Positions 22,576-55,509 of a stretch of DNA of 64,000 nucleotides are shown piece by piece. Below the pieces are notes generated by a model. The model saw only the letters and a list, made by a program, of their open reading frames with translations. It was not told the DNA's origin and searched no databases. A program made the position numbers and the translations under genes. Source of the DNA: a virus. Lineage: Duplodnaviria; Caudoviricetes. The stretch lies in the IMG/VR virus record IMGVR_UViG_3300024229_000651; one strand, given 5' to 3'. Within the stretch, counting starts at the first letter, position 1, and the number at the start of each line of letters is the position of its first letter.

Positions 22576-22650
22576 TGGCAGGCGAGCAGGGATTCGAACC
22601 CCAACCAACGGTTTTGGAGACCGCCATGCTACCGTTAACACCACTCACCT
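22576..22650 (-). tRNA. trnW: tRNA-Trp(CCA)
   Basis: Acceptor AGGTGAG/CTCGCCT, anticodon loop CTCCAAA, GTTCGAATC, encoded CCA. Confidence 0.88.
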
Positions 22651-22756
22651 AAAAACGACTTCACTTCACCATTCTTTGCATGTTCCCAATAAACATGCAC
22701 AAAGATCCGCCTACCTACTCGTTCTCAGTATAACTAAACACTTCAAACTCATGTAC

Positions 22757-22784
22757 ATTATATATGACATTGTACGAATGTCAA
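22757..22784 (-). promoter_or_regulatory. sigma70 promoter overlapped by a 19-bp palindrome
   Basis: TTGACA-16-TATAAT; TGACATT-N5-AATGTCA at 22765-22783. Confidence 0.65.
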
Positions 22785-23416
22785 GTTTTTATTTTAGTAA
22801 AAACACGCCAATCATACTTCGCAAGCGGAATTTCTGTATAGTCATATCTAGGTACAATGTTATCGCATACAAAATTCACAGCCGCAATAGTAGATTCTTC
22901 CTGTGACATTCTGGGATAAATGGTACTATAATCACATGGTAAGTCTCTTTGAGCATTCCAATTGGTATCATCGAAAATTATCATTCCGCCTGGGGCTGTG
23001 AGCTTGTCAACTAAAGTAAAGGCTAATGCGCTAGTTGGGAAGTCGTGTCCACCATCAATATAACATAAATCGTATATTGGTGTACTATTCTGCTCAACCA
23101 ACTTACCCAACTCCCACAAGAAACATTTCTCCGCTCTTGTAATTGTTACTAGCTCTTGTAAATCAAGTTTAGATAGTACTTGATCTATATTAGGCTTTAC
23201 TAGATTAGTTTTACGATCAAAGGTGTGGACTTTGCCAAAACCTTGTTCTTTAAGTATAGAGGCAAAGTATGCTGTGCCTTTACCGTGATAGAAACCTAGT
23301 TCACAGATACTCGAGTACTCGTTATCCATTATAACATCACGCAACCATGCAGCTTGCTCGTGCGACATATAACTTAAATTTTCGTACTCTTGTGTTACAG
23401 TATCTATTAGTGACAC
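22781..23416 (-). CDS. Class I SAM-dependent methyltransferase (Methyltransf_24-like)
   Basis: CELGFYHGKG, CYIDGGH, PGGMIIFDD; GTG start 23416 after AGAGGAG. Confidence 0.8.
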   Translation of the reverse strand: MSLIDTVTQEYENLSYMSHEQAAWLRDVIMDNEYSSICELGFYHGKGTAYFASILKEQGFGKVHTFDRKTNLVKPNIDQVLSKLDLQELVTITRAEKCFLWELGKLVEQNSTPIYDLCYIDGGHDFPTSALAFTLVDKLTAPGGMIIFDDTNWNAQRDLPCDYSTIYPRMSQEESTIAAVNFVCDNIVPRYDYTEIPLAKYDWRVFTKIKT

Positions 23417-23436
23417 AGTATCTCCTCTAACTAATA

Positions 23437-23513
23437 TGGTGGGCCCAGTAGGACTTGAACCTACGACCAATCGATTATGAGTCGAGTGCTCTGACCAACT
23501 GAGCTATGGGCCC
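23437..23513 (-). tRNA. tRNA-CAT, most likely Ile2 (lysidine type)
   Basis: GGGCCCA acceptor with paired G1-C72 (not fMet), C4/C5, loop CTCATAA, A73, CCA. Confidence 0.85.
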
Positions 23514-23519
23514 AAAACT

Positions 23520-23876
23520 TCAATCTTTATCTTTTGTAATAATTATGCTGCTATCTTCGCGACTTACTGTAACAGAATCGCCTGGGGATAATCCAACAGC
23601 TTCACATGCCTCTTGGGGTATAGTGAGCTGTACATTGCTGTCGTCGCCCGGTATATCCTCAAACAAGCTGTCTGCACTGTATGTTTGATTAAACTGTACT
23701 CGACGAGCATTTTGTTGTCGCTGTGACACTGCCCTTTGCTGCCTACGGTTGACCATTGTTTCCTCTTTTACTAGATCACTGAAGTCTAGATCATCTTTAA
23801 TATACCTGTATACACTAATACAGGACCACACAAATATAACAGTACACAACCCAACTAAAATATATATACTTTCCAT
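23520..23876 (-). CDS. AbrB/MazE-like DNA-binding domain protein with possible N-terminal TM
   Basis: LTIPQEACEAVGLSPGDSVTVSREDSSIIITK; starts at 23876 (AAGGAG) and possibly 23756 (GAGGA). Confidence 0.65.
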   Translation of the reverse strand: MESIYILVGLCTVIFVWSCISVYRYIKDDLDFSDLVKEETMVNRRQQRAVSQRQQNARRVQFNQTYSADSLFEDIPGDDSNVQLTIPQEACEAVGLSPGDSVTVSREDSSIIITKDKD

Positions 23877-23890
23877 ACATATCTCCTTAA

Positions 23891-23967
23891 TGGTCGGAGT
23901 ACAAGGATTCGAACCTTGGACCTCTGCCTCCCAAAGGCAGCGCACTACCAGGCTGTGCTATACTCCG
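23891..23967 (-). tRNA. trnP: tRNA-Pro(TGG)
   Basis: CGGAGTA acceptor, loop TTTGGGA, CCA. Confidence 0.95.
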
Positions 23968-23972
23968 TTAAC

Positions 23973-24048
23973 TGGCTCCGCAACTTGGGCTCGAACCAAG
24001 GACCCACAGATTAACAGTCTGTTGCTCTACCAACTGAGCTATTGCGGA
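23973..24048 (-). tRNA. trnN: tRNA-Asn(GTT)
   Basis: TCCGCAA acceptor, loop CTGTTAA, CCA. Confidence 0.95.
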
Positions 24049-24096
24049 ATAAATTGTTGGCTCTCTTTTTTACCCTGGGAGAGCCAAACCAGAATG

Positions 24097-24183
24097 TGGT
24101 ACCCGGAGACGGACTTGAACCGTCATGCCATTGCTGGCGAGGGATTTTAAGTCCCTTGTGTCTACCAATTCCACCACCCGGGC
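24097..24183 (-). tRNA. trnL: tRNA-Leu(TAA)
   Basis: Long variable arm, loop CTTAAAA, CCA. Confidence 0.95.
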
Positions 24184-24189
24184 ATTATT

Positions 24190-24381
24190 CTATATATTAA
24201 GACTTAACTGACCACTATCAATATCTTTACCGTGGAATTCAACTGCATCATTTAAAGATTCTGTCAATGCAGTAGTAATACCTATTTTTGCAAAAAAATT
24301 AATCGCTTCAGAATCCATGTCAAACGATATTGTTGCTCCACCACCATCAGACTCAATATAATCCAATACGTCTATTTTCAT
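24190..24381 (-). CDS. Small hypothetical protein
   Basis: Likely start MKIDV at 24381 after AAGGA. Confidence 0.55.
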   Translation of the reverse strand: MKIDVLDYIESDGGGATISFDMDSEAINFFAKIGITTALTESLNDAVEFHGKDIDSGQLSLNI

Positions 24382-24414
24382 TGTGTTTCTTTCCTTTCTC
24401 TTATTTACTTCCTT

Positions 24415-24502
24415 TGAAAAGGCCCCGCTCTCAATATTGAATGAGTTGTACATAAACTGTACTGCACCTCACGACCCCGAATACTTTGGGACCGCCTTTT
24501 CA
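24415..24502 (-). ncRNA. Candidate multibranch structured RNA
   Basis: Perfect 9-bp closing helix TGAAAAGGC/GCCTTTTCA with three internal stems. Confidence 0.4.
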
Positions 24503-24565
24503 CGCCCTCTAACTAATACCCTCTTTTAACTGGTTGGAGTTATCCAAACTCCTTAAACATTGTAA

Positions 24566-24642
<77 letters not shown>

Positions 24643-52243: not shown

Positions 52244-52411
52244 TTAGTCCTCTTCTTTTTGTAAAAATGTCCAGATACCATATGCTAAACCTGCCCAAGC
52301 GGCCATTTTAACAATGCCTCCAAACAAAATAATTGCTAAAGATCCAGCAACAATAATGCCGCCGTCCCAACTAGTTCTTTCCTTTAGTCTGTCTTTAACC
52401 CATGTAATCAT
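52244..52411 (-). CDS. Small two-TM membrane protein
   Basis: MITWVKDRLKERTSWDG..., GGAG SD. Confidence 0.65.
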   Translation of the reverse strand: MITWVKDRLKERTSWDGGIIVAGSLAIILFGGIVKMAAWAGLAYGIWTFLQKEED

Positions 52412-52427: not shown

Positions 52428-53225
52428 TTATTTATCATTTTTTTCAATTTTGGATGTGTACCTAATGTAATAAGGCATGCCGTGATCCATAACAAAGTCG
52501 AAGAATTGAAACTTTGATAATGCTTTTCCTAATCCTCTGAATTGATCTTTAACTCTCTGCCATGAGGTACATGGACGTATTTGTCCGTAATAATTAATAT
52601 AGTTTAGTTCGCCAGTATGTCTAAACAACATAAATGTAGGTGGTACTTTTGGTACTATGTCGTTATTATTCACGTAACGCTTGTACGCACCAATACCACA
52701 TACATCTAGATGTTTACAGTAACCTTTCGTACCTACTCTAGGTTGTCCGAAAGTTCTCAATTCTTTAATTGGTATGCCGTCTGCTACCAATTGTTCTGCA
52801 ATAATAACTGCCATAGCACCGCCTAAACTGTGACCACAGACATAAACGTCTTGATCTTTTTTACGGCCTTGCCTAATTTCTTCGAGAATCTCAGAGTATA
52901 TTTTGTTTGCATACGTATGAAATCCTCTGTGTACTCTACCGGACACAGGGTGCTTTATTGGATATAAATCTAAGTCTGCTAGGACATCTTTTGCTTCTGT
53001 AGGTTCAGTGCCTCGACATGCTACTACTATACTGTTATCTTTTGTATAGAATATCCACGCTTCTGAACTATCATCGTCGCCACTAATATACTTTGACTTT
53101 GTACGTTGTAGTCCTATCTGCTTTTCTACATTTTTTTGATCTGCTTCGTCTAGATATGCTCTTCCTGCGAGCATTGCAAGTAAAGCAGCTTTTTGGTGTT
53201 CTGTTGCTGTTTTTAATTGCGGCAT
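52428..53225 (-). CDS. Class 3 lipase (alpha/beta hydrolase)
   Basis: ACRGT, VHRGF, GHSLGG, TFGQPRVG, NDIVP, DH. Confidence 0.88.
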   Translation of the reverse strand: MPQLKTATEHQKAALLAMLAGRAYLDEADQKNVEKQIGLQRTKSKYISGDDDSSEAWIFYTKDNSIVVACRGTEPTEAKDVLADLDLYPIKHPVSGRVHRGFHTYANKIYSEILEEIRQGRKKDQDVYVCGHSLGGAMAVIIAEQLVADGIPIKELRTFGQPRVGTKGYCKHLDVCGIGAYKRYVNNNDIVPKVPPTFMLFRHTGELNYINYYGQIRPCTSWQRVKDQFRGLGKALSKFQFFDFVMDHGMPYYIRYTSKIEKNDK

Positions 53226-53264
53226 GTGTAATCTCCGTTTATAAGTGTTATTTATTTTAATCAT

Positions 53265-53290
53265 AAAAAAAGGCAGTTTACACTGCCTTT
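53265..53290 (-). terminator. Intrinsic terminator
   Basis: AAAGGCAG-N6-CTGCCTTT plus T run. Confidence 0.8.
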
Positions 53291-53305
53291 AGTAATCTCA
53301 CAGAT

Positions 53306-53464
53306 CTATATTTGGGATAAGCATAGGTACATAGTAGCAATAGTCCACATAGATAGAAATGCCCAACCAACAGATTCACAAAATGAACCATCAGCACAGA
53401 CGTTGTCCGCTATATTTTTGATTACCGCCGAGATGTTACTACCCGCTTTTTTCAAGCTAGTCAT
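53306..53464 (-). CDS. 52-aa membrane peptide (missed by ORF track)
   Basis: MTSLKKAGSNISAVIKNIADNVCADGSFCESVGWAFLSMWTIATMYLCLSQI; CAGGAG SD; followed by terminator. Confidence 0.65.
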   Translation of the reverse strand: MTSLKKAGSNISAVIKNIADNVCADGSFCESVGWAFLSMWTIATMYLCLSQI

Positions 53465-53469
53465 GTTTT

Positions 53470-53601
53470 TCTCCTGAGTCTAATATAATATTAGCACCCG
53501 CTTTCACTACCCCTCTCGGGCATAGCTCAGTGTGTTAAGACCCTCTTACGAGGCATCAGTAAACACATTGTTGTGGAAGTGCGTTGTGCGAATTACTTCC
53601 A
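53470..53601 (-). ncRNA. Candidate structured 5' leader RNA
   Basis: Five stems including two GNRA tetraloops (GTAA, GAGA); downstream of GATAAATA at 53606-53613. Confidence 0.55.
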
Positions 53602-53658
53602 ATTGTATTTATCAATGTGTAACTATACTACACAGTTTATTGGTTTTTTGTTACCTTA

Positions 53659-55509
53659 TTAAACGGAAATGACGCTTTTGCCAAAGCCTTGGCGGCGCCT
53701 AAAGTAAAGACGGTTTAGGTATTCCTCACCTTTCACATTTTCACTAATGTCAAACGTGTAATTGTAAGTACCATCTTTAAAACTGTCTATGTGATTTATG
53801 AATTGAAAGAAGTTATGATTGTACTGCCTCTCATATGGATACGATGTGTCCATGCTTGTTACAAAATTATGCTGATAATCCATTAATTCTTCAAATAGGT
53901 CGCTGTCTAATTCGCACCATTCTGAACTGAATACTTTGTGCACAAAATCGAACACTATATCGCTGTTAGCGTGGAATTCTTTTTGTGCATCCCACATAAG
54001 TGTGTGCCCGCTAAAGCCATCGCTCTTGCCTGTTTCTAGGTAGTATGCTAATTTTTCTACTGTTGCTCTATTAACGTCACCAATGAATCCTTTATCATTA
54101 ATCACAGCATCGTATACTCTGTCATATGTTTCTAAGTAGGTAACGTTCTTGTATGATCTTAGAAACCTTGCAAGTGCCTGGCTCCATCCAAAGTTGTGGA
54201 AGTTATTGATCACCCAGGCATAGTTCCAACTATCGATAAATTTTTGTCTAGGCATGTACTTTGTGCCAGTAACAAGTTCTACCTTCTCTGGTATATTATC
54301 CTCTTCCTCAAAGCCACTGATATAGTTTTCCACAACAACTGTTGTTATGCCATGAGTTTCTCGTTGGGTAGGAGTATTCATTTCTGCATTCTCTAGCAAC
54401 TGTGCAAGCCAGCTTTCGATAGCATTGTGTTGTCCCGCTTCTATGACTTCGCATATACCTCTGCGCCAACTGTTAAACGTTTCCTTGGGTAATCCTAATA
54501 TTAACTCTGTGTAACTAGGGATGTTTTCCTTGTTGCACTTGTCGAAGATCATTTTTAGATCACTAATTTCCATGTTACGTCTACGGATCTCAGTGAGTAC
54601 GTCCATGTCCATGCTTTGTACACTTAATGTAAGTCCTCTATTGAACCCGCTACTAATAAACTTTTTAACAATTTCTAGGATTTCGTCACTACTGTTCTTA
54701 TACCATGTTGCATCAACAACTTTTGGGAATCCGTATTTGTCTTGCAGTTTCACAAGCTCTTCGGTGACTTCTAAATCTCTGTCAGTGAATACACCAAAGT
54801 TAGCATCTGCTATTGTAACGTAATCAACTTTATGTTCTGCCATCCATACAAGCTCTTGCAGAACCTTTGGCATAGGAAATTTTCGTATCTTTGCATACGT
54901 TAAACTGCCCCAGTCGCAGAATGTGCATGCAAACGGGCATCCTCTGTTTGTTTCTAATGTGCCATTCCAAACAACATCTGGATTATCTTTGTAAATTTTA
55001 TCAAATACACCCGTAGTGTAAGGACTAGGTATTTCTAAGTCGTCTAGTCTGCCTCCGAGATATATTTGTTTGAGTGGTTCTTTGTTATGGAAAGTTTCTA
55101 ATATTTCAACAAATGTCTCTTCGCCTTCATTAAGGGAAATAACATCCACAAAAGGATTATTATCAAAAAACTTTTCTTCTTCTGGTCGGTTGGTAACTTG
55201 TGGACCTCCGAATACAATCGTTATACTAGGATTATATTCTTTTAGCCTACGAGCTATTTCTTTGTTGTATTCCCAGTTCCACATATAGCAACTGAAGAAT
55301 GCTATATCAGAATCCTTAACTCGGCTAACTAACGTGTCTGGGTCTTCTCGCCTAAATATTAAATCGTGTAATTCAAAATTCTGATTTACTACATCAAACT
55401 GATTACCATAACTCCATAGGCATCCTACAGAATACGGTAACCAGTAGCCTGCTAACGATCCCAGGCCGATTTTAAAGTTAGGTTGTACTAACAATACTTT
55501 ATGTTTCAC
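53659..55509 (-). CDS. Cobalamin-binding radical SAM enzyme
   Basis: N-terminal B12-binding-like domain (FSCYMWN, GGPQ); RGCPFACTFCDWG; DANFG; ELILGLP. Confidence 0.88.
   Translation of the reverse strand: MKHKVLLVQPNFKIGLGSLAGYWLPYSVGCLWSYGNQFDVVNQNFELHDLIFRREDPDTLVSRVKDSDIAFFSCYMWNWEYNKEIARRLKEYNPSITIVFGGPQVTNRPEEEKFFDNNPFVDVISLNEGEETFVEILETFHNKEPLKQIYLGGRLDDLEIPSPYTTGVFDKIYKDNPDVVWNGTLETNRGCPFACTFCDWGSLTYAKIRKFPMPKVLQELVWMAEHKVDYVTIADANFGVFTDRDLEVTEELVKLQDKYGFPKVVDATWYKNSSDEILEIVKKFISSGFNRGLTLSVQSMDMDVLTEIRRRNMEISDLKMIFDKCNKENIPSYTELILGLPKETFNSWRRGICEVIEAGQHNAIESWLAQLLENAEMNTPTQRETHGITTVVVENYISGFEEEDNIPEKVELVTGTKYMPRQKFIDSWNYAWVINNFHNFGWSQALARFLRSYKNVTYLETYDRVYDAVINDKGFIGDVNRATVEKLAYYLETGKSDGFSGHTLMWDAQKEFHANSDIVFDFVHKVFSSEWCELDSDLFEELMDYQHNFVTSMDTSYPYERQYNHNFFQFINHIDSFKDGTYNYTFDISENVKGEEYLNRLYFRRRQGFGKSVISV

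Follow-up and report, generated by a model that had tools for sequence, protein, structure and literature searches.

A conserved, covarying leader RNA adjoining a small membrane-peptide gene in uncultured marine phages

Results

A self-contained unit on the minus strand of a large phage genome

The window, by which we mean the whole 64,000-nucleotide stretch of DNA analyzed here, comes from a 339,794 bp IMG/VR virus record estimated to be 91% complete. Jumbo phages of the SCTP-2, PA5oct and RaK2 kind come closest among those in culture, though they are only distantly related, a virion protein being 32-42% identical. On the minus strand, GATAAATA, a leader of ~136 nt, a gene for a 52-aa peptide and a terminator follow one another, with 141 nt from GATAAATA to the ATG. 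Promoter motif, structured leader, small membrane-peptide gene and terminator make up one self-contained unit, and all four lie where the original prediction, which was made from the letters of this DNA, had placed them. Its elements, from 5' to 3', are:

53616-53634, minus: inverted repeat TGTGTA-GTATAGT-TACACA, directly 5' of the promoter motif
53606-53613, minus: promoter motif GATAAATA, resembling the T4 late -10 element TATAAATA
53574-53601, minus: P1 hairpin, TGGAAGT/ACTTCCA (arms 53601-53595 and 53580-53574), with a 14-nt loop (53594-53581)
53528-53570, minus: P2, long-range helix CAATGTGTT/AACACACTG (arms 53570-53562 and 53536-53528)
53557-53539, minus: single GTAA-capped hairpin, enclosed by P2 in the window copy
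53503-53527, minus: AG, P4 and TGAA
53525-53507, minus: P4, GAGA-capped, CTAT, bulged G and CCC opposite GGG and GTAG
53494-53501, minus: GCGGGTGC, target of the P1 loop, overlapping the 5' strand of P5
53476-53499, minus: P5, GGGT, bulged G and CTAATA, a TTA loop, then TATTAG and ACTC
53471-53475, minus: Shine-Dalgarno (SD) sequence AGGAG, 6 nt 5' of the ATG
53306-53464, minus: 52-aa peptide gene, ATG at 53464
53262-53290, minus: intrinsic terminator, 9-bp stem (53290-53269), GTAA loop and T run
53287-53600: transcript body inferred from separate RNA-library contigs, 5' end ~6 nt past the promoter motif

The stems that had been proposed can be read in the sequence: P1, the GTAA- and GAGA-capped hairpins, CTAATA/TATTAG (within 53499-53476) and P2, which had been given as TGTGTT/AACACA and extends to CAATGTGTT/AACACACTG. 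At the position of the terminator, relatives carry different GC-rich hairpins followed by a T run.

The peptide has the C23-x5-C29 pair and following hydrophobic helix that had been described for it. An N-terminal helix leads to C-A-D-G-S-F-C, after which the hydrophobic helix runs to the C-terminus. AlphaFold2 predicted helices at residues 3-22 and 26-51, joined at the Cys-Ala-Asp turn, with low confidence (pLDDT 68). Searches of Pfam, PHROG and NCBIfam with the peptide gave no family matches, and ESM Atlas returned only unnamed viral clusters below a useful score.

The cassette recurs in marine phages with varying neighbors

BLAST against 50,697 phage records found no match for the DNA, only a chance match for the peptide and one distant match for the radical SAM protein encoded upstream. 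Scanning viral contigs with a pattern built from the single peptide gave no match either. The radical SAM protein was used to reach viral contigs with the same cassette, and a peptide-profile search of sequences from JGI, ENA, Tara, Logan and NCBI returned no fewer than 101 clusters when grouped at 90% identity. Profile-based pattern scans yielded 28 viral loci and 174 confirmed metagenome stretches; 80 of the latter were fetched, and 79 distinct upstream regions were extracted from loci and stretches together. The cassette recurs in more than 80 distinct marine phage or metagenome sequences, the marine origin being evident from contig and run records. Members of the peptide family carry the motifs C-x-[DNS]-G-x-x-C and FMY[IVL]AMxP and share the core FK-x-KYCPDGQTCNDIA-x-x-GGLAFMVWFMYIAMEPI. 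The window peptide is a divergent member, with P0053 and P0093 as its nearest relatives.

The unit is flanked in the window by two genes, one for a B12-binding radical SAM protein on its 5' side and one for a class-3 lipase on its 3' side. This gene order, with a small membrane protein encoded after the lipase, recurs in about half of the related loci. Elsewhere the upstream gene encodes an NAD synthase, a DUF4396 protein, a decarboxylase or a DNA ligase, and at one locus ClpP is encoded downstream. Since the neighbors vary among loci, the cassette acts as an independent unit. The syntenic trio of peptide, lipase and small membrane protein could be a late membrane-directed module.

Two other roles for the peptide were considered and set aside. 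We rejected a RiPP precursor of the radical SAM enzyme, as the radical SAM gene is upstream in only 59 of 112 loci. A holin or lysis cassette was not recognized, the neighbors being radical SAM and class-3 lipase genes with no muramidase.

On the 3' side of the cassette, the lipase gene is followed by one for a 55-aa membrane protein (52428-53225 and 52244-52411, respectively, both minus). A separate copy of GATAAATA (52436-52429) stands 17 nt 5' of the start of the latter. The lipase itself probably starts at MPQLK, since the alignment with relatives sets in at residues 10-14 of the ORF as listed.

A putative late promoter and a hint of a discrete transcript

T4 late promoters carry TATAAATA as their -10 element. 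The motif of the unit, GATAAATA, matches it at seven of eight positions and at the expected distance from the inferred 5' end. Like the T4 element, it is enriched in intergenic DNA: 49 of its 61 copies genome-wide fall in the 9.4% of the DNA that is non-coding by crude gene calls, where 5.7 would be expected. It also precedes structural genes, within the window those for a virion structural protein and for a 1,168-aa protein with structural-protein and tail-fibre matches. Unlike a T4 late promoter, it has G in place of the first T and a conserved inverted repeat just upstream. The dominant intergenic motif of this phage is GATAAATA and not the T4 form, and KATAAATA was not enriched across the window as a whole (13 occurrences vs. 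9.2 expected), the enrichment emerging only from the genome-wide intergenic count. A -10 element of this kind, enriched 5' of structural genes, points to a putative T4-type late promoter, and its likeness to the T4 motif together with the structural-gene neighbors suggests that the unit would be expressed late. The PA5oct paper contains no matching promoter motif.

Among the 79 upstream regions, 70 have the promoter motif, which lies 160-225 nt 5' of the ATG (in the window, 148 nt). Its place is kept in nearly all of these 70 leaders, and P1 begins within a few bases of it. Such spacing is unusual within the phage. Among 53 genes driven by GATAAATA, the motif lies within 50 nt of the start in 39, which makes the ~140-nt spacing of the peptide gene exceptional. 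There are other genes ~150-175 nt 3' of a motif, for example from 37217 to 37054 and from 56019 to 55860 in the window.

An inverted repeat of the TTAAC...TTAA type, defined by a regular expression, precedes the motif by no more than 46 nt in 52 of the 70 relatives. The arms of the upstream repeat, which is found at the matching place in L002, L136, L158 and others, change together, which suggests a hairpin or an operator. Most relatives have the form ACTTAAC-TGATGTG-TTAA, with the 7-nt spacer in either orientation, and in many loci a TTGACT-like hexamer stands ~15 nt 5' of the repeat.

The window stretch was found in six seawater RNA libraries, and the leader unit appears to be expressed in seawater. 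In two of them, which have different study codes, the unit lies on a contig of its own (53287-53593 in X19, 53295-53600 in X20), and the radical SAM and lipase flanks are on other contigs. The ends of these contigs agree with a start ~6 nt past the motif and an end at the terminator. Per-contig depth, a weak measure, was 104 and 62 for the unit vs. 2-6 for the flanks. Contig ends and depth in these two libraries hint weakly at a discrete transcript. Silence of the flanks cannot be read from their lack of coverage in X19 and X20, and the contigs in X15 and X17, long pieces running across the entire region, are uninformative on transcription. The RNA-library contigs carry no strand information. 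Between 53100 and 53800, the sole promoter-like site on the plus strand is at 53678-53705, upstream of the unit, and such matches occur at chance level.

The leader fold is supported by covariation

Folded alone, the window leader reproduces most of the proposed stems, with z = -1.71 relative to shuffled sequences. As this energy is only marginal, the window by itself cannot settle the matter and comparison across the family is decisive. We aligned 63 distinct leaders with MAFFT (alignment A4). Unguided RNAalifold folding of A4 gave P1, the long-range P2, P4 and P5, with compensatory changes in 17 of 23 pairs. A fuller structure of 50 pairs, including three middle-domain helices missing from the window, was then scored on the 63 leaders. 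Paired cells amounted to 87.4% (76.4% after shuffling), pairs changed on both sides to 31 (23.0 after shuffling) and cells with both-side changes to 326 (98 after shuffling). The covariation looked for by the original prediction is strong: the score was 0.290 vs. 0.121 for shuffled alignments and was reached by none of 500 shuffles. In controls with the partners shifted by 1-3 columns, which leaves the relatedness of the sequences intact, covariation was at most 0.109. Judged by this comparison of sequences, the leader is a real structured RNA with a strongly supported fold, and it has the conserved, aptamer-like, covarying architecture expected of a riboswitch class.

Individual helices vary in sequence while preserving pairing. 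P1 occurs as GCAAGT/ACTTGC and GACG/CGTC. In P2, all four family-wide pairs change on both sides and 92.7% of cells are paired, with variants CAGG/CCTG, CGGG/CCCG, GAGG/CCTC and TAGG/CCTA. All seven pairs of P4 covary (98.6% of cells paired), and its GNRA loop, bulged G and flanking AG and TGAA are nearly invariant. P5 is paired in 98% of cells; its three outer pairs covary, with GGGT/ACTC, GGTT/AACC, GGAT/ATCT and CTAGT/ACTAG among the variants, and its 3' end stops one base short of the SD. The SD, AGGAG, is nearly invariant in the family and unpaired in the covariation-supported fold. Within the middle domain, two hairpins covary in five of five pairs each. A third, AAAGTT-AAGG-AACTTT, is invariant in stem and loop in most relatives and is therefore uninformative on pairing, either way; it has been lost from the window copy.

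The window leader is a shortened variant of a ~210-nt family. It is without the three middle-domain helices, and its P2 closes one GTAA-capped hairpin instead. The stem of this inner hairpin recurs in a window-like subfamily (L216, L245, L247, L260) and shows one compensatory change, CCTC/GAGG vs. CTTC/GAAG. The leaders are non-coding: 62 of the 63 have stops in all three frames, on which basis an upstream ORF inside the leader was rejected.

The P1 loop can pair alternatively with the 5' strand of P5

The original prediction had remarked that the P1 loop could pair with GCGGGTG, and this complementarity is both present and conserved. The bases that the loop can pair with in most lineages comprise the linker and the 5' strand of P5, together with the bulged G of that helix. 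Loop and target read GCAC-AA-CGC and GCG-G-GTGC in the window, CATTGGTC and GACTAGTG in L136, CATCC and GGATG in L199, and TAACC and GGTTG in L158; they differ among lineages yet remain matched. The window duplex, at -9.9 kcal/mol, is the best site for the loop in the leader. Across 16 lineages, cognate duplexes have a mean of -5.64 kcal/mol vs. -3.85 kcal/mol for non-cognate ones, a difference not attained in any of 20,000 permutations. In 52% of 62 leaders the loop has no better site than the target, and in 77% the target ranks within the top 5%. In the L174-type lineage the pairing is weak (-2.0 kcal/mol).

Because it shares bases with P5, the loop-target pairing and P5 are mutually exclusive, and the leader in this respect resembles a two-state switch. 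Forbidding the target from pairing costs a mean of 4.6 kcal/mol, near the gain from the duplex, a balance that would be expected of a switch. No terminator was found within the leader. In nearest-neighbor modeling, SD accessibility showed no systematic change when the pseudoknot was mimicked (0.53 vs. 0.58, p = 0.09).

A folded 5' region need not switch. A 5' hairpin and compact fold could guard a late mRNA from nucleases and display the SD, with steady output throughout. The unpaired SD in the supported fold, the location of P1 at the inferred 5' end and a contig depth far above that of the flanks, weak as that measure is, are all in keeping with such a constitutive element. We nonetheless regard it as unlikely: protection has no need of ~200 nt, invariant unpaired bases, a fixed bulged G and a covarying pairing that excludes P5, and other genes with the same promoter motif make do with leaders of 20-70 nt.

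Masking of the SD is not a family property

A further helix, P3 (CTGAG/CTCAG), had been proposed to mask the SD and to open with temperature or a ligand. The window and L003 do contain its 5-bp complement, but relatives have not retained this helix, and most of them cannot form it. The strand CTGAG is made up of the 3' end of P2 (…CACTG) and the invariant AG, and CTCAG of the 3' end of P5 (ACTC) and the SD. CTG thus belongs to P2 and CTC to P5, both of which covary, and changes in the two strands track the P2 or P5 partner, not the P3 partner. Relatives with CTGAGC, such as L136, carry ACTAGGAG; others have CTCAGC (e.g. L002) or CTAAGC. Since P3 is not conserved and its strands serve P2 and P5, masking of the SD is not a property of the family. 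Partition-function folding of the 63 leaders with 15-57 nt of coding sequence gave a mean probability of ~0.5 that the SD is unpaired, and this probability was below 0.3 in only 16-25% of leaders. For the window leader, predicted SD accessibility falls from 0.42 to 0.02 once the pseudoknot target is barred from pairing, which, like the 5-bp complement, speaks for the proposal. Contradicted at the family level, P3 as the mask of the SD is extremely improbable and could survive only as a quirk of the window lineage.

The same accessibility values bear on a leader of the type I toxin kind. The hok, tisB and aapA1 mRNAs are type I toxin mRNAs with structured 5' regions. Like them, the unit has a long folded leader with competing long-range pairings and a small hydrophobic peptide, and is self-contained. 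One may accordingly imagine a full-length RNA that is poorly translated until cleaved or refolded, confining a membrane-damaging peptide to the right moment, and the hydrophobic peptide in its own unit, the long structured 5' region and the alternative pairings would suit this. Unlike type I toxin mRNAs, however, the unit is single-copy, is preceded by a phage promoter motif common to structural genes and shows no conserved masking of SD or AUG. No antisense antitoxin RNA or second promoter was detected, although in contigs that are strandless, and RNA-library contigs hold leader and ORF in one piece. Activation by processing consequently strikes us as very unlikely.

The RNA is linked to one phage peptide family

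Searched with a covariance model built on the leader's 3' module (R1), the 340-kb genome gave exactly one copy, at 67.6 bits. With a strict RNA pattern, 21 viral contigs were recovered, 10 of which had not been reached via the peptide. In eight of these 10 the next ORF encodes a peptide of the family, and in the remaining two (L257 and L258) it probably does, the start codon lying inside the match. A loose 14-base RNA pattern gave more than 120 chance matches and no new member. The RNA is strictly linked to one phage peptide family in every case checked, and it adjoins the SD of the peptide gene in every case found. A few peptide genes (L149, L152, L157, L159, L162) have no such RNA and seem to lie immediately behind another gene; the peptide can thus do without the RNA. 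Peptide and RNA patterns had no matches in 185,579 bacterial and archaeal species-representative genomes; as these scans used exact patterns, distant forms may be missed. One unrelated viral contig (L011, 1378-1398) has GGGTG-CTAATAATTAG-ACT-CACCC between two genes, after a GC-rich hairpin, probably a chance resemblance since it has no match to R1.

This linkage weighs on the idea that the RNA acts in trans, for example as a decoy or by binding a host or phage protein, with the peptide gene merely co-transcribed. Strong conservation of unpaired regions, the AAAGTT-AAGG-AACTTT hairpin that is invariant in most relatives and a possibly high RNA level (by the weak depth measure) would all fit a trans-acting RNA. 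Against it, no copy of the RNA was found away from the peptide gene, whose SD it adjoins in every case, and the window copy, having lost the invariant hairpin, keeps P1, P2, P4 and P5 beside the SD. A role in trans is hence highly doubtful.

The leader, originally supposed to be undescribed, has no match in Rfam by scans at two stringencies. At the gathering threshold, Rfam 15 found only six tRNAs in the whole window, and none of its families, including the cobalamin, NAD+ nadA and glutamine-II riboswitches and self-cleaving ribozymes, reached that threshold in the leader. Permissive scans of the window, L002, L003 and L136 leaders returned chance-level matches only. The best sense-strand match, freshwater-2, was rejected (17.7 bits against a threshold of 49.9, which is chance level). 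The tRNA genes form a cluster at 22576-24642 on the minus strand (Trp, Met, Pro, Asn, Leu, Arg).

The preQ1-II, preQ1-III, SAM-II and SAM-V riboswitches and the glutamine-II 'Downstream-peptide' motif are translational riboswitches with a pseudoknot at the ribosome-binding site. Like them, the leader has conserved multiple helices and a covarying long-range loop pairing beside the SD, and it precedes a short ORF largely in marine metagenomic sequence. Unlike them, it has no Rfam match, its SD is outside any conserved helix, and its occurrences so far are all in phages, each 5' of a gene of one peptide family. To our knowledge, phages rarely have structured, covarying leaders as complex as this one, and only a few such leaders go with one gene family alone.

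A catalogue built on IMG/VR lists 8,495 unnamed candidate structured RNA motifs of 29-151 nt (PMC10690425). Like those candidates, the leader is a covarying intergenic RNA of uncultured phages from the same source. It may be listed anonymously among the 8,495; the main text of that paper describes no function or architecture for it.

Discussion

The stretch can be read as a single transcription unit of the late type in the genome of a marine jumbo phage. The mRNA of this unit would open with a conserved structured leader, specific to phages, that would act in cis on the adjoining membrane-peptide gene. The leader would fold into P1, P2, P4 and P5; alternatively, the P1 loop would bind the 5' strand of P5 including the bulged G. 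The RNA could thus adopt either the P5 hairpin abutting the SD or a pseudoknot tying the 5' end to the ribosome binding region. By shifting between the two, it would set translation initiation of the peptide, and perhaps mRNA lifetime, in answer to an effector, which may be a small molecule or a protein. The analysis establishes the unit, its fold, the alternative pairing and the strict bond between RNA and peptide; a difference in output between the two states, and something that tips them, are our supposition.

We put such a cis-acting two-state element at the ribosome binding site, answering an effector, at about even chances. What speaks for it is the covariation of the fold, the cognate pairing of loop and target, the balance of energies and the strict linkage to the peptide, along with the unusually long non-coding leader and the weak hint of a transcript. 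Against it, sequestration of the SD is not conserved in the 63 leaders, and no effector, protein partner or terminator-type platform was identified. Unlike most riboswitch classes, the RNA occurs only in phages, as does the peptide; some peptide genes go without the RNA; and the loop-target pairing of the L174-type lineage is weak.

A more specific version of the two-state element is a phage-restricted, riboswitch-like sensor. Here a signal of the state of infection, such as a host metabolite, an ion or a phage protein, would tip the balance between pseudoknot and P5 and so time the production of a tail-anchored Cys-x-x-Gly-x-x-Cys peptide, which may cooperate with the lipase and the other small membrane protein during a late step directed at the membrane. 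We consider this speculative and rather improbable as a whole.

The leader is widespread in seawater, judging from at least 101 peptide clusters, 174 confirmed metagenome stretches and ~30 viral contigs, and it offers a testable two-state design beside a ribosome binding site. Its effector would reveal which signal is sensed, late in infection, by a large group of marine jumbo phages not yet in culture, and would give a first handle on a conserved, unannotated small membrane peptide.

Nature has also altered the element next to the SD. In L257 (12503-12583) and L258 (10187-10267), P5 is replaced by a short hairpin with AAGGAGG in its loop, directly before the ATG, a variant that amounts to a natural experiment on the role of P5.
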